Positions 47,808 through 59,634 of a stretch of DNA of 64,000 nt are shown here, piece by piece. Below the pieces are notes generated by a model. That model saw only the letters and a list, made by a program, of their open reading frames with translations, searched no databases and was not told where the DNA came from. Made by a program: the position numbers and the translations under genes. The stretch is from positions 7,211-71,210 of the forward strand of contig DFQC01000051.1 in assembly GCA_002377585.1 (NCBI GenBank), in the 5' to 3' direction. Origin of the DNA: Anaerolineales bacterium UBA3499. Lineage in GTDB: Bacteria > Chloroflexota > Anaerolineae > Anaerolineales > UBA11657. Each line of letters starts with the position of its first letter. Position 1 is the first letter of the stretch.

Positions 47808-50117
47808 CTACAACCATTCACCAATTAATTGTATTTCTAACTCCAAATCAACATCGAAAAATTTACGAACAGTTCGCCGCGCTTTATTAATCAATCCTAC
47901 AACCTCTGTAGCACTAGCTCCTCCTAAATTAACAAAAAAGTTCGCATGTACTGTAGAAATCTCCGCTTTTCCTAAGCGAAAACCTTTTAGACCAGCTTTT
48001 TCAATCAATCGGCCAGCATAATCTCCAGGAGGATTCTTAAACATAGAACCAATGCTTGCACCTGGCGGTTGAGTTTCACGCCTATGCTGGATAAAACCTG
48101 ATGCTCGTGATCTAAGTGTTTCAGTATGAACTTGTTCAAGTACAAACTCAGCTCGCAACATAACTAAATCATCCTCACTAATTTTTAGATTGCTAGAGCG
48201 ATAGCTTAGACCTAGCTCAGGTAATGTCCAACTCTTTGTCCCTTTCCCGCGTTGCAAGATATCAGCCAAAAGTATGTTCGTCGATATATCACTACCATGA
48301 GCACCCGCATTGCCAACTACTGCTCCACCTACAGTTCCAGGCACAGAAACTGCCCATTCAAGTCCGCCTGCACCACGCTTTATACACATTCGAGCTAATG
48401 AAGCCAACATAGTACCAGACCCCACATTTACGTACATCTGCGATTGGTCTTGTTCAAACACTACACTTCTGGCTAGGTTATGAACCACTAATCCTCGTAC
48501 TCCTTTATCTGAGACAAGCAAGTTAGAACCGGACCCAAACACCAATACTGGTATTCCTGCTTCCCAACCTGTCTGAACTGCATCAGAAAGTTCATCTACT
48601 GATCTAGCTTGCACGAAATAATCAGCTGGGCCTCCTATTCGCGCAGACGTATAAGATGCCATTGATTCATTTTTTCTAAGTTTTTCTCCCAATTGTGCAA
48701 AAAGTAAATCTAGAGCATCACCACTCTGATAATTTCTGTAACACAGCATATTGAGAACACGTTCGCCAACCTTGTAACCATCACCCGCACTCATAGTAAC
48801 AAGCACGTCTCCCGAATTCATACCTGAAAAAATGAATCTAGCTGCTTCATTGATATCCCCAACATAATGAGCATCTGGGTGATCCATCAATTCGAGGATA
48901 TTTTTCGATGAAATGGTTCCATCATCTTTCTCCCGCGAAGCAAATATATCCGTTATGACCACATGATCGGCATCGTAAAAACTCGATGCTATTTCTGACG
49001 TCAGGGCATGTGTACGTGAGTAGGTGTGAGGCTGGAACAAAGCCCACAACTTCTTGTTAGGAAAGTGTAAACGTGCTGCACCAAGTGTTGCCTTGATTGC
49101 CATCGGATGATGTGCATAATCATCTACAATGGTAATGCCTGCTCTTTTACCCTTTATTTCAAAACGCCGTTTCACGCCTCTGAATTCTCGCAAAGCAGTT
49201 ACAATCTTTTCTATACTTAAGTCATAAAAATCGACTGCTGCTATAGCAGCCAGAACATTCATCACATTATGTTCACCTGCTAGGCAAGTATCTACATTTT
49301 TAACATATTGTTTACGAGTATTGACTAAAGAAAAACTACAGCCCCCGTTACTATTAACTCGTATGTTTTCACCTTTCCAATCAGCTTCATTTTGTAGTGC
49401 ATACGTCACCACAGGAATACCAGACTCTTTGGCCTTTTCTCCCAATTTACGGGCCAGTATGTCATCTTGATTAATGACAAGTCGACCTTCAATTGGAGTT
49501 AACATGGCAAATTCCCAAAACGCATCTTCTAAATCACCAAACGTACTATAACAATCGGGATGATCATAATCTATACTAGTAACAACACTGACTGTAGGGG
49601 ATAAACCCAGGAACATTCGATCATATTCATCCGCTTCTACTACAAATGGTTCACCTACATCATAACGAGCATTGGTATCTATTCCATTTACTGTCCCCCC
49701 CACTATAAATGTAGGTTTTAAAGCATTTTCAAGTAAGCAGAATGAAATAAGTGCTGTAGTTGTTGTCTTGCCATGACTTCCTGCTATGGCGCATCCTAAC
49801 TTAGTCTTCATCAAATTCCCTAATACATCTTGCCTTCTCAATACTTTTATATTTCTAGCAGCAGCTGCCACCAACTCAGGATTTGTTGATGGAACAGCAG
49901 ACGAAGCTATTACCACATCAGCACCCGAAATATTAGTAGCTTGATGACCGATATGAACAAGCACTCCAAGAGACTGTAATTTTTCGGTTATATCTGACTC
50001 ATAAAGATCTGAGCCACTCACGACATGCCCTCTTTCGTGCAACACCTTAGCAACAGCTGACAACCCAGCACCACCAATCCCTATGAAATGAATATGTTGA
50101 TTCAATATCATAAACAA
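47808..50117 (-). CDS. murC-murB: Fused UDP-N-acetylmuramate--L-alanine ligase / UDP-N-acetylenolpyruvoylglucosamine reductase
   Basis: MurC half: HFIGIGGAGLS, GSHGKTTT, EADEYD, DDYAHHP, FQPHTYSR. MurB half: RIGGPAD, GSGSNLL, PGTVGGA...NAGAHG, GSMFKNP, HANFFVN. Confidence 0.95.
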   Translation of the reverse strand: MFMILNQHIHFIGIGGAGLSAVAKVLHERGHVVSGSDLYESDITEKLQSLGVLVHIGHQATNISGADVVIASSAVPSTNPELVAAAARNIKVLRRQDVLGNLMKTKLGCAIAGSHGKTTTTALISFCLLENALKPTFIVGGTVNGIDTNARYDVGEPFVVEADEYDRMFLGLSPTVSVVTSIDYDHPDCYSTFGDLEDAFWEFAMLTPIEGRLVINQDDILARKLGEKAKESGIPVVTYALQNEADWKGENIRVNSNGGCSFSLVNTRKQYVKNVDTCLAGEHNVMNVLAAIAAVDFYDLSIEKIVTALREFRGVKRRFEIKGKRAGITIVDDYAHHPMAIKATLGAARLHFPNKKLWALFQPHTYSRTHALTSEIASSFYDADHVVITDIFASREKDDGTISSKNILELMDHPDAHYVGDINEAARFIFSGMNSGDVLVTMSAGDGYKVGERVLNMLCYRNYQSGDALDLLFAQLGEKLRKNESMASYTSARIGGPADYFVQARSVDELSDAVQTGWEAGIPVLVFGSGSNLLVSDKGVRGLVVHNLARSVVFEQDQSQMYVNVGSGTMLASLARMCIKRGAGGLEWAVSVPGTVGGAVVGNAGAHGSDISTNILLADILQRGKGTKSWTLPELGLSYRSSNLKISEDDLVMLRAEFVLEQVHTETLRSRASGFIQHRRETQPPGASIGSMFKNPPGDYAGRLIEKAGLKGFRLGKAEISTVHANFFVNLGGASATEVVGLINKARRTVRKFFDVDLELEIQLIGEWL

Positions 50118-50124
50118 ACCACCA

Positions 50125-50646
50125 TCAAATAAACACCACTACAATAAAGATAAATGCAATACCTAAACCAAAATATATATAAGGTGGGCCTACAAGCTCT
50201 GGTGGCATGTATTCCAACATATTCATCACACTATCAGATCCTGGTGGAAATATGCCTGCAACTGGATAGCCAGTCACGTGCAAATAATGCCATATTGTTC
50301 CTATAAGCAAGTACCCATTAATGACACCTAGAAACAATCCTAACAACATATCTTCAAGACGCTCACGACGAGCCTTGTCAGCAAACAAAGTCGCTACTAC
50401 CGGTGTCGAGTAACCAAAAAATGCGAGAAGAAACACGAATCCAGCACGTACTGAAAATTGTGTTAATGCAGTTTGTGATATCAAAGCTAATTGCACACCC
50501 GGCACATATTTCATGAGAATTGCATCCAAAAACAAGGCTAGAAATAAACTAAACAAAACTAATATTTCCTTTGCCCAACCTCGAAGAGCACCGATGACTC
50601 CAAAAAGCAAAAGATACATCCAGAACAGCACAGACAACGAAATCAT
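50125..50646 (-). CDS. CvpA-family membrane protein
   Basis: FGVIGALRGWAKE N-terminal pattern and LGLFLGVINGY, 4-5 TM segments. Confidence 0.75.
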   Translation of the reverse strand: MISLSVLFWMYLLLFGVIGALRGWAKEILVLFSLFLALFLDAILMKYVPGVQLALISQTALTQFSVRAGFVFLLAFFGYSTPVVATLFADKARRERLEDMLLGLFLGVINGYLLIGTIWHYLHVTGYPVAGIFPPGSDSVMNMLEYMPPELVGPPYIYFGLGIAFIFIVVVFI

Positions 50647-51773
50647 CTCGATCCCTCTGATGCCATAGATACGAGCTCTTTTGCAATACGTTCAGAACCT
50701 AAAGTCTGCGACAAACGTTTTGCAGCCTTGCTCATATCATTTAGTACAGACATATTGTCCACTAATCCGGTTACAATATCTGTCAGATCACTCTTTAGGT
50801 CATGGTCTTCAATACAAATTGCTGCACCTGAATCACTAAGTAACTGCGCATTTGAGTATTGATAACGCCAAGAATAAGGATAAGGTACCAATATTGCCGG
50901 CAATCCAAAAGCAGGAAATTCCCCAAGACATGAAGCACCCGCACGAGCAACCACCAGATCAGACGCACCAAGAGCTAATCCCATATCTTCATAAATGTAC
51001 GGAAAAATCCTATAATTTGATTTTGTTTCTAAATGTAAGCCATTCCATGCATCTTGTACTTCACTCCAACCGAGCTTTCCAGTCACATGAATAACTTGTA
51101 CCCCTTTAGCTACCCATTCATTAACAGAATTGACAACAGCCATATTAATGCTACGAGCTCCCAAGCTTCCGCCTACAACCAATATTGTCTTACGCGAACA
51201 ACTTATCCCAAAATGCTCCCTAGCTTTGGTAGTCGACACTTGCATATCACGCAACAATTCTGGTCTCAATGGATATCCTGTAACTATGGTTTTATTTTTC
51301 ATAAATTTGAAAAATTTCCGTGAAATTTCTGCAGTTATCAATACCCGCTTTGCAATCCTCGAAATCACGCGAACTGCTAGACCAGGCTCTACATCAGGCA
51401 AGTAAATAGCAACTGGTATTCTACGAAGCCATCCACACAGCACCACTGGGATAGCTGTATAACCACCTGTAACAAAAATAGCATTTGGTTTAAAGTGCGA
51501 TATCAAAGGCCAAGCCTGAATAGCACCTATCATAACCTTCCACAAACCTACACAAACTCCGACAAATCCTCTACCAACTACACCACCAGAATGAATTATC
51601 TCAATTTCAATTCCTGCCTTAATCACAATATCGCGCTCAATCCCACCTACTGAGCCAATCCACAGTAGATTCAAGTCACCGCTATTTAAACGGGACTCAC
51701 GCAAACTAGCGACGGCTGCCATTGCTGGGTAAACGTGCCCGCCTGTTCCACCAGCGCAAATCAATAATCGCAC
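50643..51773 (-). CDS. murG: MurG glycosyltransferase (GTG start 51773 preferred over 51806)
   Basis: GGTGGHVYPA, TGGY, TGYPLR, GGSLGA, RAGAS; GGAGAG SD. Confidence 0.95.
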   Translation of the reverse strand: MRLLICAGGTGGHVYPAMAAVASLRESRLNSGDLNLLWIGSVGGIERDIVIKAGIEIEIIHSGGVVGRGFVGVCVGLWKVMIGAIQAWPLISHFKPNAIFVTGGYTAIPVVLCGWLRRIPVAIYLPDVEPGLAVRVISRIAKRVLITAEISRKFFKFMKNKTIVTGYPLRPELLRDMQVSTTKAREHFGISCSRKTILVVGGSLGARSINMAVVNSVNEWVAKGVQVIHVTGKLGWSEVQDAWNGLHLETKSNYRIFPYIYEDMGLALGASDLVVARAGASCLGEFPAFGLPAILVPYPYSWRYQYSNAQLLSDSGAAICIEDHDLKSDLTDIVTGLVDNMSVLNDMSKAAKRLSQTLGSERIAKELVSMASEGSR

Positions 51774-52923
51774 GGCTCTCCCTATCAGGTCTAATTTCCA
51801 AATCATATCTGGAAATACTCATCAAAATTCCAATACCAGTTAAAGTCACCACTAGTGAAGAACCCCCATAACTAATAAGTGGCAAGGCATTTCCAGCAAA
51901 GGGTAATACTCCGAGTATCACTCCTATGTTGACTATAACTTCCATAGCAATCCAACCAGTCAGTCCACCTGCCAACAATTTACCAAAAGAATCTTGTACT
52001 CGTACAGCAATTAATACGCCACGCCAACAAAGCACTACAAAAAGCGCAACTACAATAAGACTACCTATAAGACCAAGCTCCTCGCCTATTACTGCAAAGA
52101 CGCTATCTGTATGAGGGACAGGCAAATATGAAAATTTTCCTGCACTTTTCCCTAAACCCACTCCAAAAATACCGCCATCAACAAAAGCAACAATAGCCTG
52201 ACGAACATGCCAGGAGCCCTCAGTGATGTCACGCAGACCAGCCATGTATTCTGCAATTCTTTGTTGTCCTGTAGGATAAAAATTTATCACTAGATATCCT
52301 ACAGATAATGCAATTAATAATGCTCCGGCAAGATGCACTATTGCTGCCCCGGCAAGAAAAAGCATTAGAACAGCAATTACAATTACAGTGGCCGCAGCAC
52401 TAATATCAGGCTGTAAAATTATTAATGTAGCAACAATACCTACCAAAATTGCAAATGGGGCAATACCATTCCAAAAATCCTTTAGTTTGTCCTGCTTGGA
52501 AGACATCCATACAGCCAAATATAATATTGTCACTAGTTTAGCTAACTCTGAAGGCTGATAAGAACCTGCAACCAAACCTCGATCGGCACCAATAAACAGC
52601 ACCAATACTAATACAGTAATAGTGGAAATCCCCATACCTATAGCTACTATTGGAATACGCAAATGACGATAATCTAAAAGAGCACAGCTTACTAGCGCTG
52701 CTATTCCAAACAATAAATGCCACAAATGCTTGTTCAACATTACAAAACGTGAACCATGCCAATTGTATGACAAATCAAATGTAGTAGAAAACACCATCAT
52801 GATGCCAAAAACCAACAATATTGCCGTCATCATAGCTAATATCCAATCTACCTGAGTGGTTCTTCCCTTGATTCTGCCTTGCTGAGCTTTGACAGCGTTG
52901 TCAGATGTTCCACTAGCAATCAT
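51706..52923 (-). CDS. ftsW: FtsW SEDS-family peptidoglycan polymerase
   Basis: QPSELAK, LQPDIS, HTDSVFAVIGEELG, PLISYGGSS. Confidence 0.95.
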   Translation of the reverse strand: MIASGTSDNAVKAQQGRIKGRTTQVDWILAMMTAILLVFGIMMVFSTTFDLSYNWHGSRFVMLNKHLWHLLFGIAALVSCALLDYRHLRIPIVAIGMGISTITVLVLVLFIGADRGLVAGSYQPSELAKLVTILYLAVWMSSKQDKLKDFWNGIAPFAILVGIVATLIILQPDISAAATVIVIAVLMLFLAGAAIVHLAGALLIALSVGYLVINFYPTGQQRIAEYMAGLRDITEGSWHVRQAIVAFVDGGIFGVGLGKSAGKFSYLPVPHTDSVFAVIGEELGLIGSLIVVALFVVLCWRGVLIAVRVQDSFGKLLAGGLTGWIAMEVIVNIGVILGVLPFAGNALPLISYGGSSLVVTLTGIGILMSISRYDLEIRPDRESRAIIDLRWWNRRARLPSNGSRR

Positions 52924-54416
52924 GATAAATTCACCACCAAGTCTCTATAACACTCTCCGCGCTCAATGGCATCTGAAAACTGATCATAACTTGTACATCC
53001 AGGAGCTAACAACACGACATCTCCTGGATTAGACAAAGTATGAGCAGCTTCTACTGCTTGCTCCATTCCTGCGGTTTCTAGTAAGTTAGTAATCACAGGA
53101 ATAGGATCAGAGTCTGCTGCTTCCCCGGCAGTCGACTCTTTTACAAGTCTTTCAGACCCTGATCCCTCATCCGCAAATTGGGTACCATACTGCTCGCCAA
53201 ATCGAGCACCTACCTCTAACTTAGATTCGTACCAGGCACCTTCTAACTCTCTTTTAATTGCTGGCGCAGCTTCTCCAAACAAAATAATATTCTTAACTCC
53301 AGATTGAATTTCTTGAGCAAGTACGTGCCACGGCAACTTTTTGTCTTTACCACCAAGCAATAGAATTACAGGATCATCGAAAGCCTTAAGAGCCGCAATA
53401 GTCCTATCAGGCGTTGTAGCCATAGTATCATTTACCCATCGAACTCCATTTACCTCAGTTATTAGTTCCATCCTATGTGGCACTCCATCAAAATCGCATA
53501 TTCCAGCTTGGATTGCATCAACTTCAATGCCAGCAGCAGCTGCCAATGCACTTGCTGCAATGACATTCATCAAATTATGAGCACCTAGCAAACCTACTTC
53601 CTGACATGGCAGTATTGAATTTGTCACTCCATCACGACGCAGCATAATTTTTTCATTTTCAATAAAGCACCCATCATCAAAGTTTGCATCCGAATTCATA
53701 CTAAACCCCCAACAATGACCATGAACTCGCTTGCTCATTCGCCTAGTAACTTCATTGTCCCAACCCAAAACTGCTATATCATCAGATTGCTGTCCGTCTA
53801 GAATATGTTCTTTAGCCATCACGTATTCTTGCATATTTGAATGCCTATCCAAATGGTTAGGAGACACATTCAGTACACCAGCTATATGAGGACTGGATGT
53901 CATAATTTCCAATTGAAAACTCGAAAGCTCCATTATTGCAATGTCCTGATCAGTCATTTCATGCATGTCAAGCAAAAGAGGATTGCCAACATTGCCGCCA
54001 ACCCATACATTCTTATAAGTTTGTGAAGCCGCTATAATTTTGCCTGTAAGTAATGTAGTCGTTGTTTTACCTGAAGAACCAGTAATACCAACAACTCTGC
54101 AGGGCAATTGTTCTAACACAAGCTGCGAATCATTGGATAAAGGTATACCCTTTGCACGTGCCTCCTGCAACAACGGTATATCCAGTGGTACTCCCCCTGA
54201 CACGAATATAATGTCTACGCCATCGAGAAGAGAAAGAGGATGTTCTCCTAGCACGAAGTTAATTGCATAAGAACTCAAATCTTGAATTGGTGTCGCAAGA
54301 TCTTCTGCACTTCTTAAATCCGTTGCTATCACGCTGGTATCTCCATCTGCCAAATGCTTAATTACAGCCATGCCTTGCCTAGCAAGACCTATAACAAGTG
54401 CATTTTGCCCAATCAT
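52920..54416 (-). CDS. murD: UDP-MurNAc-L-Ala--D-Glu ligase
   Basis: GITGSSGKTTT, GGNVG, ELSSFQL, NHLDRH, HRME, GGKDK, LLAPGCTSYDQF. Confidence 0.95.
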   Translation of the reverse strand: MIGQNALVIGLARQGMAVIKHLADGDTSVIATDLRSAEDLATPIQDLSSYAINFVLGEHPLSLLDGVDIIFVSGGVPLDIPLLQEARAKGIPLSNDSQLVLEQLPCRVVGITGSSGKTTTTLLTGKIIAASQTYKNVWVGGNVGNPLLLDMHEMTDQDIAIMELSSFQLEIMTSSPHIAGVLNVSPNHLDRHSNMQEYVMAKEHILDGQQSDDIAVLGWDNEVTRRMSKRVHGHCWGFSMNSDANFDDGCFIENEKIMLRRDGVTNSILPCQEVGLLGAHNLMNVIAASALAAAAGIEVDAIQAGICDFDGVPHRMELITEVNGVRWVNDTMATTPDRTIAALKAFDDPVILLLGGKDKKLPWHVLAQEIQSGVKNIILFGEAAPAIKRELEGAWYESKLEVGARFGEQYGTQFADEGSGSERLVKESTAGEAADSDPIPVITNLLETAGMEQAVEAAHTLSNPGDVVLLAPGCTSYDQFSDAIERGECYRDLVVNLS

Positions 54417-54444
54417 ACTAATCCTCTATCTCCCATCACAACTA

Positions 54445-54699
54445 TCAATTGTTGGGCTGATATTCTTGTATACTATCTGATGCAATTCCAACCCAAAAAT
54501 GATTAGGAAGTACATTAGCAGCAGTTTTAACTGACAGACCCTGAGGAGTACCAAAATCTTCAATCATCGTATCAGGATGCATATAACACACAGTAGGTTG
54601 ATCACCAAAACGTTTCTCATAATGACTCACTGCATTGTTGATCTTTTCTTTCAGTGATCTCTTTTCACCATCGTCAAACCATAACAATCCTATTTCCAT
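54445..54699 (-). CDS. Hypothetical 84 aa soluble protein inside the dcw cluster
   Basis: Strong AGGAGG SD; fills the mraY-murD gap; MEIGLLWFDD...PNHFWVG. Confidence 0.85.
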   Translation of the reverse strand: MEIGLLWFDDGEKRSLKEKINNAVSHYEKRFGDQPTVCYMHPDTMIEDFGTPQGLSVKTAANVLPNHFWVGIASDSIQEYQPNN

Positions 54700-54720
54700 A
54701 GTAACCTCCTATTTGTATAA

Positions 54721-55713
54721 CTAAAGTAATGCTAAAGCTACGCCAATCATGCCGGACAAAATTGATACTAACCAGAATCTCTGCACAACTTGTGTCTCAC
54801 TCCAACCCATTAGCTCAAAATGATGGTGTAGTGGCGCCATACGAAAAATCCTACGACCACCACTCCACTTGAAATACAACACTTGCATTGCCACAGATAA
54901 GGTCTCAGCTAACGGCACAATAGCTATAATTGGCAAAAGTAACCATTGGCCTGTCATAAGTGCTATGACTCCCAATAATGCCCCAAGTGACAGAGAGCCT
55001 GTATCTCCCATAAACAACTGTGCCGGATGAACGTTGAACCATAAAAATGCAAAAAGGGCACCAACCAGTGTGAAACAAAATCGCACGAGGAAAACTTGCC
55101 CCTGCAAAAGGGCTACAAATCCGAAAGCCATAAAGTTTGTGACCAAAACTAGTCCCGCCATACCGTCCAATCCATCAGTAATATTTACAGCGTTGGACGT
55201 ACCAACAATAATAAAGACACCTATGGGAATGTAAAATAAACCTATATCAACTTTACGAGGAAATCCAGGCAATGCCACACTATGTATGTCAAATGCAAAA
55301 TAAAGCACTAATACTGCACCAAGTGCAATTATCACTTGGGTAATCAGTTTATAACGAGCACTAATTCCCTCTCCTCTACGACCATTTCTTAACCCATACC
55401 AATCGTCCCACATGCCTAGCGCAGCAAATCCTACTAATACAGCCAATGGTAATAATATTGAACGTCCAGTAACAACTTTTGCGAGACTAACCAAGTTAAG
55501 TACTGCGGTAATCACCAGTACTGGTGCAATGACTAGCAAACCTCCCATAGTAGGAGTGCCGAGCTTGGAAAAATGTGTTTGAGGACCGTCAATCCTTATC
55601 TGCTTCCCAATTCTTAGTCGTCTGAGGACCTCTAATAAGGGGCCACCCCAAATTACCGTCATTACAAAAGTAATGCTAGCCAAAGTTAGCGAAAAAATTC
55701 CTTCAGGATTCAT
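54721..55713 (-). CDS. mraY: Phospho-MurNAc-pentapeptide transferase
   Basis: KLGTPTMGG, GMWDD, NAVNITDGLDG, FMGDTGSL, MAPLHHHFE. Confidence 0.96.
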   Translation of the reverse strand: MNPEGIFSLTLASITFVMTVIWGGPLLEVLRRLRIGKQIRIDGPQTHFSKLGTPTMGGLLVIAPVLVITAVLNLVSLAKVVTGRSILLPLAVLVGFAALGMWDDWYGLRNGRRGEGISARYKLITQVIIALGAVLVLYFAFDIHSVALPGFPRKVDIGLFYIPIGVFIIVGTSNAVNITDGLDGMAGLVLVTNFMAFGFVALLQGQVFLVRFCFTLVGALFAFLWFNVHPAQLFMGDTGSLSLGALLGVIALMTGQWLLLPIIAIVPLAETLSVAMQVLYFKWSGGRRIFRMAPLHHHFELMGWSETQVVQRFWLVSILSGMIGVALALL

Positions 55714-57149
55714 GCTAATATTTCCAAATCATTAACTAAACTATCAAGCCCCAAACCTCTGGAACCCTTTATTAAAACTACATCTCCACTACCAATATTA
55801 TTGGACAAATAATTTAATGCATGTTGGCTATCTCTACATTGAACTATTTCATTAGTGGTCATGCCTGCATTAAGAGCACCTTCTGCAATGAGAGAACCTA
55901 ACTCACCTACAGTGACCAGCAAATCAACCACATGACGTGCACGTGTTCCGACAGAAATATGACCTTGATATTCAAAAGGGCCTAGCTCTAACATATCCCC
56001 GAGAACGGCTATACGTTTGACCGCATCTAAGTCATCCAGCAAATTCAGAGCAGCAATAGTTGATTCTGGTGATGCGTTATAACTATCATCTAAAAGCATA
56101 CTTCCATGTGGGCCTGGAACTGCGTACAGACGCAATTGCGCCTGCCCATCTTGTGCCTGGAGACCTTCTAGAATTTCCTGCCAGGTTAGCCCTTCCACTA
56201 ATCCTACAGACGCAGCACGTAATGCCGTATGAACTGAATGTCTACCAAGAAGTGGAACACGTACATGCATAATGTCATCACCATAATGAACCTTAAACCT
56301 AATGCCATTTAATCCCATACTGTGGACATCTGATGCCCACAAATCTGCATTTGAATTTAAACCATAAGTAAATACACGTGATGACGCCTTTTCTCTCATA
56401 GCCATCACGATCGGTTCGTCGGCATTTAAGATGGATGTTCCCTCAGGTGCTTTGGGCAGGGCTTCTATTAGTTCTGATTTTCCAGCTGCTATATTATTGA
56501 GACTACCAGCTCGCTCTACATGCACAGGATATACGTTTGTTATCACTCCCACATGTGGAGAAGCTAGATCACAAAGAAATCGGATCTCCCCTCTGGTATA
56601 AAAACCCATCTCCAACACAGCATATTCATGTCTTTCTTGCAATGCCAACAAACTTAACGGAAGACCAATTTCATTGTTTAGATTGCCTTCAGACTTTAGA
56701 GTTTTGAATCTCTTAGATAAAACGGATGATGCGAGTTCCTTGGTGGTGGTTTTTCCAACGCTACCAGTAATACCTACGACTCGAACGTTCAACTGGTTAC
56801 GCCAATACTGTGCAAATCGCTGCAATGCTTTTAATGTGTCTGACACTCGCAAGCATACTGGTAATACTATGTGCTCTAACTGCTGTTCTATTGCACCAAC
56901 ATCTCTCAAGTCTAGACAAGCAAAATCACTTCCAATGTCATGTTCAACTAAAGCTGCTATAGCACCTCCACTAAATGCTTGTTTAACGTATTGATGCCCA
57001 TCATCTTTTTCTCCAGCCAAAGCCACAAATACTGCACCTTGGGTTGCCTGGCGCGAGTCAATCACTACATTACCAATTGTGTTGGACAGTGCATCATTAT
57101 CCAAATGTAATCCGGTCAGAGCAGTAACAGCTGTACCTAAACTCAACAT
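55710..57149 (-). CDS. murF: UDP-MurNAc-tripeptide--D-Ala-D-Ala ligase
   Basis: IDSRQ, GITGSVGKTTTK, NNEIGLP, DDSYNASP, LGDMLELG, KGSRG. Confidence 0.95.
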   Translation of the reverse strand: MLSLGTAVTALTGLHLDNDALSNTIGNVVIDSRQATQGAVFVALAGEKDDGHQYVKQAFSGGAIAALVEHDIGSDFACLDLRDVGAIEQQLEHIVLPVCLRVSDTLKALQRFAQYWRNQLNVRVVGITGSVGKTTTKELASSVLSKRFKTLKSEGNLNNEIGLPLSLLALQERHEYAVLEMGFYTRGEIRFLCDLASPHVGVITNVYPVHVERAGSLNNIAAGKSELIEALPKAPEGTSILNADEPIVMAMREKASSRVFTYGLNSNADLWASDVHSMGLNGIRFKVHYGDDIMHVRVPLLGRHSVHTALRAASVGLVEGLTWQEILEGLQAQDGQAQLRLYAVPGPHGSMLLDDSYNASPESTIAALNLLDDLDAVKRIAVLGDMLELGPFEYQGHISVGTRARHVVDLLVTVGELGSLIAEGALNAGMTTNEIVQCRDSQHALNYLSNNIGSGDVVLIKGSRGLGLDSLVNDLEILA

Positions 57150-57161
57150 TGTAGACTCATA

Positions 57162-59141
57162 TTATCTGTCGGAAGCTAAACGCTGCCTGATTTCCTCTGG
57201 AGGTATCTCCATGTGTATTACTAGCCTTTCAACCATTTTTGCAAATGTAGGTGCTGCTGTTGAAGAACCCCATTGACTGGTCTGAGGAGCATCCAACTTC
57301 ACATATATTATGAATCTTGGTTGATCCACTGGGCCCCAGCCAATAAAAGATGCCATAGTACGCTCAGTATCATAACCATAAGGCATTGGTATTTGAGCTG
57401 TGCCTGTTTTACCAGCAAGCTTATAACCATCTACTAATGCCTTTGAATGCGATGTCTCTGTTTGAAGACTTGCTGTGAGCATATCTGTTAATGTGTTAGC
57501 TACTTCTCTAGAAATGGGATTACCTAATATCTTAGGCTTGGCTGTATAAACCATGTCACCATCTCTAATCTCCTGCAACAAATGCGGTTGCATGATAACC
57601 CCATCATTAGCAACGGCAGATACAGCTGTGAGCATCTGCAAACCAGTTACAGCCAATCCCTGTCCAAAAGAATTAGTAGCTAAATCCGCATCATGCCAAT
57701 CTGGATCACCAGGACGCCGGAGACTACCAGTTTCCTCACCCTGAATGTCAACATGTGTCAATCTACCAATGCCGAATGCTTGCAAGTGATCATAATATTG
57801 TTTTGGACCAAGAGTAGTAGAAAGAGTCGCAGCGCCTACATTTAATGAGCGTGCTAACAGACCTGTCATGTCCTGATGATCATGAGCTTTTAAGTCCCAG
57901 TTCCTTACAACAATTCCACCATATTCAAATATACCGGTATCAAAATAACTGCTATATCTAGAAAAAATGCCTGATTCAAGTGCAGCAGCCATAGTTATAA
58001 CTTTGAAGACGGATCCTGGTTCAAATTGCTCGCTCACAGCTGGATTGCGCCCTACATTTTCAGTATCTGTTATAACTGCTTCAATATCGTTTGGATCAAA
58101 ACCTGGCACGGAAGCTATGGCAAGAATGTCCCCCGTGGTCGGGTCACCGACAAGCATCATTCCACTTTCAGCCTCATATTCCTGGATACTCTCTGTAAGC
58201 ACTTGCTCAGCTAAGAATTGAATCTCACGATCTATAGTCAAATATACGTCAGCATTTGCATCTGTCTGAAGTTCTGTACCTACATCGAGGGGTATTATCG
58301 ACACAAAGACTCTCTCAGTGTCCCCACCTAGAATATCATCATAGTAGCCCTCTACCCCATAATATCCTGTCTGATTGTACAAAACCAGACCAAGTATATG
58401 TCCAGCTAATGGCCCATTTGGATATGTGCGTAATAGAACAGGCCTTACGGTTATACTTCGTAATGTATGCCCGTACTTTCCAGATAATAGAGCCCAAATA
58501 TGTTGACGTAATTCAAGATCAAGATCTTGTCCATATGCTTCTACTAATCTTTGTAATTGAACCCCCAAAATTGGTTCGACTCGCTCATCATAGTCACCAT
58601 TGAGTATCAAACTAATTTGCTCCGCAAACTCTGGTGTAATCTTGGGACCATGATCCCCATCGTAAAGCTGCTGCATTTGCCTCTCCAAATCAGGAGCAAG
58701 TTCTGGTTCCAAATAAGCTTTCAATTTCTTATACGAGAGTTGAGTACCATCCACACTCATGTCATCTAGCACCAATTTTTGCAAAGACTCGTATGACATA
58801 TCGATCAAGCTTGATAACTCCATAGCAATATTTTTCAATGCAATTCGTCTATCAAATTCATCTATATTTCCATCTTCATTCTCATCGCCATATAAGACAG
58901 AGTCATAATCAATACCAACCTCATAGAAAACCGCATTAGTAGCAAGCAGCTCTCCATTTCGATCAAAAATTCGCCCTCTCGGTGGCCGGACCATTTGGAA
59001 ATTTCCAGGTCCTCCAACTGCAACCTCAGCAGCTTTCAAGTTGAATTGCAGACTAATAAGACGATAAAACACAAAAAGAGTGCTTAGTCCTAGAAGAAAC
59101 ACAACAATGCCCAAACGATTGTGAAAAGAATCTGAACGCAT
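57162..59141 (-). CDS. ftsI: Class B penicillin-binding protein (FtsI/PBP2 family) with N-terminal domain insertions
   Basis: RGRIFDRNG; catalytic SxxK (SVFK), SxN (SLN), KTG (KTGT). Confidence 0.92.
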   Translation of the reverse strand: MRSDSFHNRLGIVVFLLGLSTLFVFYRLISLQFNLKAAEVAVGGPGNFQMVRPPRGRIFDRNGELLATNAVFYEVGIDYDSVLYGDENEDGNIDEFDRRIALKNIAMELSSLIDMSYESLQKLVLDDMSVDGTQLSYKKLKAYLEPELAPDLERQMQQLYDGDHGPKITPEFAEQISLILNGDYDERVEPILGVQLQRLVEAYGQDLDLELRQHIWALLSGKYGHTLRSITVRPVLLRTYPNGPLAGHILGLVLYNQTGYYGVEGYYDDILGGDTERVFVSIIPLDVGTELQTDANADVYLTIDREIQFLAEQVLTESIQEYEAESGMMLVGDPTTGDILAIASVPGFDPNDIEAVITDTENVGRNPAVSEQFEPGSVFKVITMAAALESGIFSRYSSYFDTGIFEYGGIVVRNWDLKAHDHQDMTGLLARSLNVGAATLSTTLGPKQYYDHLQAFGIGRLTHVDIQGEETGSLRRPGDPDWHDADLATNSFGQGLAVTGLQMLTAVSAVANDGVIMQPHLLQEIRDGDMVYTAKPKILGNPISREVANTLTDMLTASLQTETSHSKALVDGYKLAGKTGTAQIPMPYGYDTERTMASFIGWGPVDQPRFIIYVKLDAPQTSQWGSSTAAPTFAKMVERLVIHMEIPPEEIRQRLASDR

Positions 59142-59142
59142 T

Positions 59143-59634
59143 TTATTCTTCTATCAATCCCCATTGAACGATATGACGTACAGCCCACTCAGTAAGACTT
59201 TCGTCATAATAACTCGTCGGATCTGCAGAGTTGCTGCCTTCAGAGCTCGAAATATAACGATTATCTTGTTCATAATCAAAATTCGGAACCATCAAGTATT
59301 CGATCTGTTCCAATTGCAATGGCACATACCCTAGTTGGCCAGCTCTTTCCATCAAAAGTGACGCCGATTCTAAATATGCATTGTTAGCATGTATTAGGTC
59401 ATTTTCATATCCAATATTTTCAACTTGCCTTCGCAGTTGCTGTACATGCCTACCCGTAACAGCTGCTCGAGAAGTTTCTGCCAAATAAATCGCACCAAAC
59501 ATACCCAGAGCAAATACTATTATCAATATTGGCGCTGTAATTTGCCTGTGTCGTCGCCATTGTGCTTGTTTAAATGACTTTTCAGGTAATGCATCTAAAT
59601 GACCATCTGCTGTCATTTTTTGTCTCACAGCCAT
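59143..59634 (-). CDS. ftsL: FtsL-like bitopic membrane protein
   Basis: One TM helix followed by a leucine-zipper-like segment and RAGQLGY; position between rsmH and ftsI; AGGAGG SD. Confidence 0.7.
   Translation of the reverse strand: MAVRQKMTADGHLDALPEKSFKQAQWRRHRQITAPILIIVFALGMFGAIYLAETSRAAVTGRHVQQLRRQVENIGYENDLIHANNAYLESASLLMERAGQLGYVPLQLEQIEYLMVPNFDYEQDNRYISSSEGSNSADPTSYYDESLTEWAVRHIVQWGLIEE

Follow-up and report, generated by a model that had tools for sequence, protein, structure and literature searches.

The window analyzed here, a stretch of 64,000 nucleotides from Anaerolineales bacterium UBA3499, carries on its minus strand a gene for a class B penicillin-binding protein (bPBP) of 659 residues, an FtsI-type division transpeptidase (positions 57162 to 59141), assigned by its open reading frame, Pfam matches, catalytic motifs, fold, and synteny. 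Pfam placed the PBP_dimer domain (PF03717) at residues 52-254 (E = 3.6e-11) and the transpeptidase domain (PF00905) at residues 327-637 (E = 5.3e-68). The catalytic motifs SxxK (S377-V-F-K380), SxN (S432-L-N434), and KTG (K578-T-G580) did not vary in either of two alignments, one with 30 and one with 112 sequences. The gene is part of a dcw cluster with the order mraZ-rsmH-ftsL-like-bPBP-murF-mraY-murD-ftsW-murG. The label FtsI rests on synteny because the protein missed the NCBIfam equivalog cut-offs, with scores of 321 against 688 for SpoVD, 239 against 455 for PBP2/MrdA, and 163 against 737 for FtsI. The best structural matches in Foldseek were Clostridioides difficile SpoVD (7rcz), Pseudomonas aeruginosa PBP3, and Staphylococcus aureus PBP1. 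An N-terminal membrane anchor was located at residues ~9-31 (positions 59049 to 59117, minus strand) by its hydrophobic sequence LGIVVFLLGLSTLFVFYRLISL, and an AlphaFold2 helix at residues 4-33 spans it. The remainder of the protein would therefore be extracytoplasmic, a topology taken from the general bPBP architecture. Directly upstream lies a gene for a putative FtsL-like bitopic protein of 163 residues (positions 59143 to 59634, minus strand), so designated from its dcw position. The FtsL-like reading frame had no NCBIfam match; homologous reading frames sit upstream of the bPBP gene across the order, and the protein is likely the partner of the pedestal.

Residues 86-97 of the bPBP (positions 58851 to 58886, minus strand) form a 12-residue EF-hand-type loop, DENEDGNIDEFD (D86-E-N-E-D-G-N-I-D-E-F-D97), which is followed by RRIALKNIAMELS. 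The loop was recognized by its sequence, its conservation, and a published EF-loop consensus, Dx[DN]xDGx[ILV][DSTN]x (PMC3123361). All eight constrained positions matched that consensus together with an acidic position 12 at the helix start. Residues D86, N88, D90, G91, I93, D94, and D97 fit the layout of a 12-residue EF loop (oxygen ligands at positions 1, 3, 5, 7, 9, and 12, glycine as residue 6, and a hydrophobic position 8). The initial annotation, made from the sequence alone, had described residues 86-97 as an exact EF-hand/dockerin consensus in the non-catalytic pedestal. The 659-residue reading frame bore out the consensus, and the loop was assigned to the pedestal because it falls inside the PBP_dimer match and not in that of the transpeptidase domain. 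A scan with PROSITE PS00018, also proposed there, had a less favorable outcome: the 12-position core was matched, but the full 13-position pattern failed because position 13 is Arg98 and not hydrophobic. The pattern D.[DN].DG.[ILV][DN]..[DE] had a single match among 825,058 residues in stop-to-stop reading frames of at least 100 residues from the 2.13-Mb genome. Its chance expectation was 2.7e-4 per protein for the composition of this protein, and shuffling of residues 80-100 regenerated it in 3.2e-4 of the shuffles.

AlphaFold2 predicted a pedestal β-strand leading into the loop at residues 65-78 (positions 58908 to 58949, minus strand), coil at residues 82-94, and a helix at residues 95-112 (positions 58806 to 58859, minus strand), which is the first helix of the head subdomain. 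The helix after the loop, as claimed in the initial annotation, is thus present in the model, where it begins at loop position 10; it aligns with the dockerin F-helix. Its pLDDT was 81-86 in the full-length model, with 81-84 at the helix start, and 91-93 in a fragment model (helix 46-64; loop-bearing sequences only). No entering E helix was predicted, the element ahead of the loop being the β-strand. A Foldseek search with the 103-residue fragment model returned only weak matches to bPBP pedestals, the best of them at E = 0.14, and neither an EF-hand nor a dockerin fold. By way of the RGxIxDRNGxxLA motif, residues 65-71 of the strand were mapped to P72-P78 of P. aeruginosa FtsI, which touch helix α1 of FtsL (PMC7614612).

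The loop lies within a lineage-specific insertion of 17 residues (residues 83-99, LYGDENEDGNIDEFDRR; positions 58845 to 58895, minus strand), visible as a gap in the alignment with loop-less Anaerolineales FtsI sequences and located at the junction of the pedestal β-strand with the first head-subdomain helix. It was limited to one Anaerolineales family (f1) and a small metagenomic lineage (P0022-24) and was absent in the other genera sampled over the order, class, and phylum. In the P0022 lineage the dcw order is identical to that of the window. Most probably the insertion dates back to the ancestor of a single Anaerolineales family that is probably marine; a marine origin of the loop-bearing organisms is suggested by a Tara-sourced homolog. 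Region-restricted homolog searches returned nine near relatives with residues 70-130 of P0001 and three with residues 60-130 of P0023. A profile of residues 50-152 searched against 1.84 billion cluster representatives missed the family of the query itself, whose representative at 50% clustering is probably a sequence that lacks the loop, and this search therefore gives no measure of the spread of the loop.

The pedestal as a whole is enlarged by ~80 residues, since positions 3-124 of the PBP_dimer profile were stretched over residues 52-254. The head subdomain carries a second insertion (residues 145-207; positions 58521 to 58709, minus strand), which was recognized from an alignment gap and adds three predicted helices at residues 152-161, 170-180, and 192-206. 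The corresponding positions are a gap in P0022-24, in genus g3, and in every other relative. This insertion is younger and lies outside the putative metal site, yet it is part of the same remodeled head. Its internal duplication score was 39 compared with a shuffle mean of 19 (p ~0.0015). A candidate for a second Ca2+ loop within it (DGDHGPKITPEF, NGDYDERVEP) was rejected, as its positions are not conserved as ligands.

The ortholog alignment suggested in the initial annotation showed ligand positions 1, 3, 5, 9, and 12 to be chemically invariant. Asp at 1, Asp or Asn at 3, Asp at 5, Asp or Asn at 9, and Asp or Glu at 12 were kept in 28 of 28 distinct insertion-bearing sequences, so that the lack of conservation named there as counterevidence was not observed. 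Entropies were calculated from 26 distinct 73-residue contexts, the 28 distinct sequences being a looser count. Entropy was zero at positions 1 and 5, and positions 3, 9, and 12 varied only between Asp and Asn, Asp and Asn, and Asp and Glu, respectively. Positions 4, 7, 10, and 11 reached 1.8-2.8 bits, with non-acidic residues at 4, 10, and 11. The five ligand positions were within the six least variable of the twelve (6/792, or ~0.008, for the choice of positions alone), and no decayed copies of the loop were seen among the insertion-bearing sequences. The three loop-bearing lineages have dcw synteny in common and are 43-57% identical overall. Deviations occurred at position 6, with Lys in genus g3 (DEDxDK) and Asp in P0022 (DYNDDD), and at position 8, where some members of genus g2 have Thr. 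Most copies (genera g1, g2, and g3) have Asp at position 12, and the P0022-24 lineage has Glu.

With one motif only in the protein, the loop corresponds to a lone dockerin-like "F-hand" and not to a canonical paired EF-hand. A profile of the loop region retrieved dockerin type I and FG-GAP Ca2+ loops from the 1.84 billion proteins. Alignment to the dockerin F-hand segments with hhalign gave 95.9% probability over 31 columns comprising loop and helix, a comparison that is partly circular because those segments had been retrieved with the loop profile. Dockerins were also the top non-PBP matches when the pedestal fragment was searched against PDB sequences; those matches were not significant (E = 0.4-2.2), and S. 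aureus PBP1 was aligned without the motif. The Pfam EF-hand (PF00036/PF13405) and dockerin models had no match in the 40-residue and 103-residue fragments at E ≤ 10. The term EF-hand/dockerin-type used in the initial annotation thus holds as a resemblance, seen in the hhalign comparison, and not as family membership, given the missing Pfam match, the single copy, and the absence of a cohesin.

Dockerin type I domains (PF00404; Clostridium thermocellum CelS, PDB 1daq/2mte) have in common with the FtsI loop the 12-residue DxNxDGxIDxxD motif, Asp at position 12, and a direct passage into an amphipathic helix, with none ahead of the loop. They differ in being autonomous modules of ~60-70 residues with two tandem F-hands that bind cohesins, whereas here one loop lies within a PBP pedestal. 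PF00404 had no match anywhere in the 94%-complete genome, cohesin PF00963 was absent from it, and the FtsI loop lacks conservation at positions 10 and 11, which serve recognition in dockerins. Dockerin-cohesin docking was rejected on account of the single repeat, the absence of both families, and the variable recognition positions. An FG-GAP/integrin-type β-hairpin loop was also rejected: the similarity covers only 15 columns (the strand and the loop to position 9), no FG-GAP Pfam match was found, and a helix follows instead of a strand.

At the level of sequence, a Ca2+-type site is well supported because its ligand positions are kept across lineages that are 43-57% identical and because the loop can be aligned to dockerin F-hands. 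The explanation that we favor, with moderate confidence, is a structural Ca2+ site that is always occupied and makes the lineage-specific insertion rigid. Here we infer metal binding, the identity of the metal, the assignment of the ligands, and the stabilizing role alike. By analogy with EF-hand loops, one ion would be enclosed by D86, N88, D90, and D97 through their side chains, by N92 through its backbone carbonyl, and by D94 through a water molecule. The bound ion would pin an otherwise floppy acidic insertion onto the N terminus of helix 95-112. The site would be permanently filled because the domain is extracytoplasmic and the bacterium is probably single-membrane and in seawater. Seawater contains ~10 mM Ca2+. 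The site would then be a structural staple, like the EF-hand of the lytic transglycosylase Slt35 or the Zn site in some bPBP transpeptidase domains, rather than a switch. The initial annotation had proposed Ca2+-dependent stabilization or regulation of septal cross-linking. Stabilization appears as the most plausible role of such a site, and regulation is unsupported, considering that the loop is single, extracytoplasmic, and distant from the catalytic domain along the sequence, and that the organisms probably live in seawater with its constant Ca2+.

The conservation of the loop could instead reflect another constraint on an acidic turn. Such a turn would bind no metal; it would cap the N terminus of the head helix or provide negative charge on the wall side, and its likeness to an EF-hand would be coincidental or a by-product of turn-forming Asp, Asn, and Gly. 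Unrelated acidic or polar insertions occur at the same junction in S. aureus PBP1, P0132, P0136, P0147, and family f17, the curated EF-hand and dockerin models are unmatched, and D/N-rich turns are frequent as helix N-caps. The replacement of Gly at position 6 points in the same direction, although Lys and Asp at this position occur in functional EF-hands according to the PROSITE pattern. We consider a metal-free turn unlikely overall, as the probability of a chance match is low (~3e-4) and charge or capping leaves unexplained why positions 1, 3, 5, 9, and 12 are fixed and positions 4, 7, 10, and 11 float. Moreover, position 12 alone accepts an exchange of Asp with Glu, and positions 3 and 9 alone accept one with Asn, which is also the behavior of true EF loops (PMC3123361). 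Selectivity of the site for another cation, Mg2+ or a trace lanthanide, rather than Ca2+ was judged very improbable. In classical EF-hands, Asp at position 12 reduces the affinity for Ca2+ and could favor Mg2+, of which seawater contains ~50 mM, since a shorter bidentate ligand favors smaller ions. Asp is the residue at this position in genera g1, g2, and g3, but dockerins with Asp at position 12 bind Ca2+, and the P0022-24 lineage carries the canonical Glu. The additional carboxylates at positions 2, 4, and 10 of the loop in the window, which would also suit a different ion, are not conserved in the other insertion-bearing sequences.

A bound Ca2+ might also serve a function beyond stability. 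The loop could be a contact or hinge at the junction of anchor and head that tunes the interaction with the FtsL-like protein, FtsW, or a cell-wall hydrolase, and hence the activation of septal synthesis. The strand that corresponds to the FtsL α1-binding surface of P. aeruginosa FtsI is consistent with this proposal, as are the docking role of dockerin F-hands, the closest sequence match, and the repeated remodeling of the head subdomain in this clade by insertion 145-207. A Ca2+-dependent complex of SltB1 and PBP2, for which an EF-hand-mediated contact was modeled, has been reported (PMC12547810). On balance we hold such a contact to be rather unlikely. The loop stands alone and unpaired, positions 10 and 11, which serve recognition in dockerins, vary the most here (2.5-2.8 bits), and the genome contains no cohesin or dockerin domain. 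When FtsL-like proteins from loop-bearing and loop-less families were compared, by eye only, no obvious matching or f1-specific change was seen. The high and constant Ca2+ of seawater also leaves little to sense. A more specific proposal is highly doubtful: a metal-dependent latch at the hinge of anchor and head, in which Ca2+ occupancy sets the pedestal open or closed and gates FtsW-FtsI activation through the adjacent FtsL-binding strand. If true, it would represent a divalent-cation input to divisome activation, evolved in single-membrane marine Chloroflexota with a medium-exposed synthase.

Few bacterial enzymes have been studied as much as class B PBPs, whose pedestal is now viewed as an allosteric relay that activates SEDS polymerases. 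If the Ca2+-type site is real, it would be the first metal site in a bPBP pedestal within the literature searched. It would add a further structural context for the Dx[DN]xDG motif and would provide a clean natural case of a loop that was born by a short insertion and then fixed throughout a bacterial family. A structural Ca2+ site also predicts that the bPBP needs Ca2+ in the buffer to remain folded, which matters for expression. Unless a regulatory function is shown, the reach of the finding is limited because the bacteria are uncultured and the role is probably purely structural. What is new is most likely the context of a known motif, a site of this kind not being described for this enzyme class in the literature searched.

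Canonical FtsI/PBP3 and SpoVD (P. aeruginosa PBP3, 6r3x; C. difficile SpoVD, 7rcz; S. aureus PBP1, 8vbt) have the fold (Foldseek E = 1e-41 to 1e-47, target-normalized TM 0.8-0.85), the domain order, the catalytic motifs, and the dcw context in common with the protein described here. All three structures are without the loop, and in S. aureus PBP1 the strand-helix junction is occupied by a non-acidic insertion. The remark in the initial annotation that such a loop was not known from characterized FtsI/PBP2 proteins agrees with the sequences and literature searched. Structural metal sites that vary by lineage have a precedent in class B PBPs, namely the Zn2+ site in the transpeptidase domain of Acinetobacter baumannii PBP2 and C. 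difficile PBP2, PBP3, and SpoVD, which is required for stability (PMC9974482). It differs from the FtsI loop in the metal, in its Asp/His/Cys ligands, and in the domain, where it adjoins the active site, and by eye its ligand set is not conserved here.

Family 3 lytic transglycosylases (Escherichia coli Slt35/MltB; P. aeruginosa SltB1, SltB2, and SltB3) possess an EF-hand-like Ca2+ site with a reported role in stability and possibly one in contacting PBP2 in a Ca2+-dependent manner (PMC12547810). Like the FtsI loop, this EF-hand-type site is present once, is unpaired, and lies within an insertion, in an enzyme that acts on peptidoglycan outside the cytoplasm. The transglycosylase site is a helix-loop-helix with a 17-residue loop and crystallographically established binding, whereas the FtsI site is putative, has a 12-residue loop in a strand-loop-helix context, and lies in a synthase and not a hydrolase.

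The widest comparison is with Dx[DN]xDG loops outside EF-hands (Rigden and Galperin 2004; Rigden et al. 2011, PMC3123361). The motif in strand-loop-helix contexts binds Ca2+, a grafted loop is sufficient for binding, and most true sites, though not every one, are captured by the regular expression (PMC3123361). The loop in the window matches it with DENEDG and provides the distal acidic ligand with D97; genus g3 and P0022 deviate at the Gly. The class B PBP pedestal is not among the contexts in PMC3123361, where the word "penicillin" occurs 0 times. The FtsI loop and these loops have in common the linear motif, the spacing of the ligands, and the strand-loop-helix context, as well as a lineage-restricted appearance within an existing fold, and in the known cases the roles are structural or regulatory.

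The bPBP is encoded by a 659-aa ORF at window positions 57162..59141 (minus strand), within the gene order mraZ, rsmH, a 163-aa FtsL-like ORF, bPBP, murF, mraY, murD, ftsW, murG, a murC-murB fusion and ddl. Although the protein reached no named NCBIfam equivalog cut-off, the synteny of this division and cell-wall (dcw) cluster justifies the label division transpeptidase. In the cluster (window 47808-57149, minus strand) no murE was present between bPBP and murF, and the MurC-MurB fusion is a single 769-aa ORF. Pfam assigned residues 52-254 to PBP_dimer and residues 327-637 to Transpeptidase. Because the former cover only profile positions 3-124, the pedestal exceeds the usual length by ~80 residues. 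All three catalytic motifs (S377xxK380, S432xN434 and K578TG580) were invariant in alignments with relatives, and the AlphaFold2 model (mean pLDDT 84.9) matched C. difficile SpoVD, P. aeruginosa PBP3 and S. aureus PBP1. The EF-hand-type loop DENEDGNIDEFD, followed by RRIALKNIAMELS, was recovered in the translated ORF at residues 86-97 (window 58851-58886, minus strand), with the sequence and position reported in the initial annotation. Its location in the non-catalytic pedestal of a division transpeptidase was borne out as well, since Pfam places these residues inside PBP_dimer and outside Transpeptidase in a dcw context.

The pattern D.[DN].DG.[ILV][DN]..[DE] occurred once in 825,058 residues (stop-to-stop ORFs ≥100 aa, 2.13 Mb genome). 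The chance expectation from the composition of the bPBP itself was 2.7e-4 per protein, and shuffling of the acidic stretch at residues 80-100 recreated the pattern in just 3.2e-4 of cases. When PROSITE PS00018 was applied, the 12-position core matched and the full 13-position pattern failed because position 13 is Arg98. Elsewhere in the genome, a 786-aa ORF on contig C25 (plus strand) contains five Dx[DN]xDG motifs (DLDGDG, DVDGDG, DLDSDG, DVDGDG and DFDMDG) and probably encodes a repeat-type Ca2+-binding surface protein.

Conservation was assessed on all distinct sequences with the insertion, gathered from both proteins and loci and amounting to 26 distinct 73-residue contexts (28 by a looser count). 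The motif was kept in all of them, and no decayed copy was found. Positions 1 and 5 were always D (entropy 0 bits), followed by position 9 (D/N, 0.52 bits), position 12 (D/E, 0.62 bits), position 3 (D/N, 0.84 bits), position 6 (G/K/D, 0.93 bits) and position 8 (I/L/V/T, 1.35 bits). Positions 7, 4, 11 and 10 were variable (1.77, 2.25, 2.53 and 2.83 bits). Of the twelve positions, the six with the lowest variability included all five ligand positions, an outcome with a probability of 6/792 by position choice alone. An EF-hand loop is defined by side-chain ligands at positions 1, 3 and 5, Gly at position 6, a backbone carbonyl from any residue at position 7, a hydrophobic residue at position 8, a water held by position 9, and an acidic position 12 that starts the next helix (PMC3123361). 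Judged from the alignment, the variability of the bPBP loop is the pattern expected of such a loop. Loss of the ligand positions, which had been named as grounds for dismissing the loop, did not occur: positions 1, 3, 5, 9 and 12 were kept throughout. Because overall identity between the compared lineages is just 43-57% (alignment), this conservation does not merely reflect recent divergence.

In alignments with relatives, residues 83-99 (LYGDENEDGNIDEFDRR) lay opposite a 17-column gap in loop-less Anaerolineales FtsI. The loop therefore constitutes a discrete insertion, placed where the pedestal strand ...YEVGIDY leads into the first head-subdomain helix. In a survey of 401 genomes from the order, the form with the insertion was detected at 121-167 bits in 12 of the 13 sampled members of one family, f1 (genera g1, g2 and g3). 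In the remaining one (G012) nothing matched, and the insertion was found in 0 of ~120 other genera, where matches ended before the loop. Beyond the window's own genome, no genome scored in 401 spread evenly over the class or in a further set of 401 covering the phylum. The insertion was also present, in the same dcw context, in a small metagenomic lineage (P0022-24) with 50-52% identity to the window's protein by BLASTP and 56-57% in the multiple alignment. Alignment and AlphaFold2 delimited a second insertion of 63 residues with three extra helices in the head subdomain (residues 145-207; window 58521-58709, minus strand). Its restriction to g1 and g2 makes it younger than the loop insertion. 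Its two halves gave a local score of 39 versus a shuffle mean of 19 (p ~0.0015), and resemble a tandemly duplicated helix-turn-helix unit of ~35 aa.

The term EF-hand/dockerin-type in the initial annotation held for resemblance only. A 103-position profile of residues 50-152 was constructed from ten members of the family. Run against 1.84 billion representatives, it gave no match >45 bits, own family included; the family was presumably missed since the representative of its 50%-identity cluster is a loop-less FtsI. Besides bPBP fragments, the profile found proteins matched repeatedly over the loop alone: five stretches of P0121, a dockerin type I protein, matched over loop and helix, and several FG-GAP repeat proteins over strand and loop. 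In profile-profile comparison, the loop region matched six P0121 F-hand segments with 95.9% probability over 31 columns (loop and helix), a partly circular result because these segments came from the same profile; FG-GAP segments matched over 15 columns only. PDB sequence matches to the dockerins 1daq, 2mte and 2vn6 were non-significant. The Pfam Dockerin_1 and EF-hand models did not match the bPBP, and a domain search of the genome found no cohesin or dockerin domain. Family membership was rejected on these grounds, together with the single repeat and the variability of positions 10 and 11, through which dockerins recognise their partners and which are the most variable in the bPBP loop.

Sequence conservation makes a putative Ca2+-type site well supported, and a stabilising role is plausible; the initially proposed regulation of septal cross-linking is unsupported. 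The most likely reading, held with moderate confidence, is a structural Ca2+ site. The N-terminal anchor (predicted helix 4-33) places the ectodomain outside the cytoplasmic membrane, and Chloroflexota are generally regarded as single-membrane. With external Ca2+ at ~10 mM, the site would be occupied at all times, and the bound ion would stiffen the acidic insertion against the N-terminal end of helix 95-112. A marine habitat is probable, since a homolog sharing 84% identity derives from a Tara source and the same protein is present in NCBI assembly GCA_002727295.1, presumably a member of an ocean MAG set.

An acidic cap with no metal is an unlikely alternative. The strand-to-head-helix junction seems particularly prone to insertions: in bPBPs of other lineages, unrelated acidic/polar insertions occur there in the retrieved proteins P0132, P0136 and P0147, in S. 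aureus PBP1 (8vbt) and at loci L043-L048 (for example ...VEDDNGDIDEAKTK..., ...KEDEDDENEV... and DYRSINREANDAH), and none fits the EF-loop pattern. A preference for Mg2+ or another ion would agree with the Asp at position 12 in most lineages; we consider it highly improbable. A Ca2+-dependent interface or hinge affecting activation is doubtful. By the RGxIxDRNGxxLA motif, we take residues 65-71 to correspond to P72-P78 of P. aeruginosa FtsI. The P. aeruginosa sequence used agrees with the residue names V53, I58, H61, L64, P72 and P78 in PMC7614612, where P72-P78 are part of the surface binding FtsL helix α1. The loop comes 15 residues later, after the same strand, at the entry of the chain into the head subdomain. 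The loop is a known motif in a new structural context, within an extensively studied enzyme class and limited to one family of uncultured bacteria. Its significance is modest, and would be sharply greater only if the loop gates pedestal opening.

In the literature searched, no Ca2+ site in a bPBP pedestal was described, in line with the initial annotation, and a wide-ranging 2025 survey of bPBP architectures mentions neither calcium, metals nor insertions. A lone EF-hand-like site located within an insertion is known from family 3 lytic transglycosylases. In E. coli Slt35 it is regarded as structural, and it may take part in the Ca2+-dependent SltB1-PBP2 contact (PMC12547810). A 2017 mBio paper described this complex as formed "through an EF-hand motif of PBP2" (PMC5615198), whereas the 2025 structural paper assigns the EF-hand to the lytic transglycosylase (PMC12547810). 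The earlier attribution looks like an error and could misdirect anyone looking for EF-hands in PBPs. A. baumannii PBP2 and C. difficile bPBPs have a structural Zn site in the transpeptidase domain that is needed for stability (PMC9974482), with the spacing D-x14-D-x5-H-x12-C in A. baumannii PBP2. In the bPBP, D401-x14-D416-x5-H422 (residues 401-435, ~57837-57941, minus strand) mimics the first three of these ligands; since the fourth position has no Cys and D416 and H422 are unconserved among relatives (alignment), this site is probably absent.

Full-length AlphaFold2 predicted a strand at residues 65-78, coil at 82-94 and a helix at 95-112 (block pLDDT 81-84 over residues 81-100). A second model of residues 50-152, from loop-bearing sequences only, gave the same elements with a loop pLDDT of 91-93. 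The proposed helix after the loop is thus also predicted by the models and, as in EF-hands, would start at loop position 10. Unlike EF-hands, the modelled loop has neither an entering helix nor a second loop, which makes the element a single strand-loop-helix "F-hand". Dx[DN]xDG loops have been recorded in a dozen or more unrelated folds, strand-loop-helix contexts included, and a grafted loop of this type suffices for Ca2+ binding (PMC3123361).
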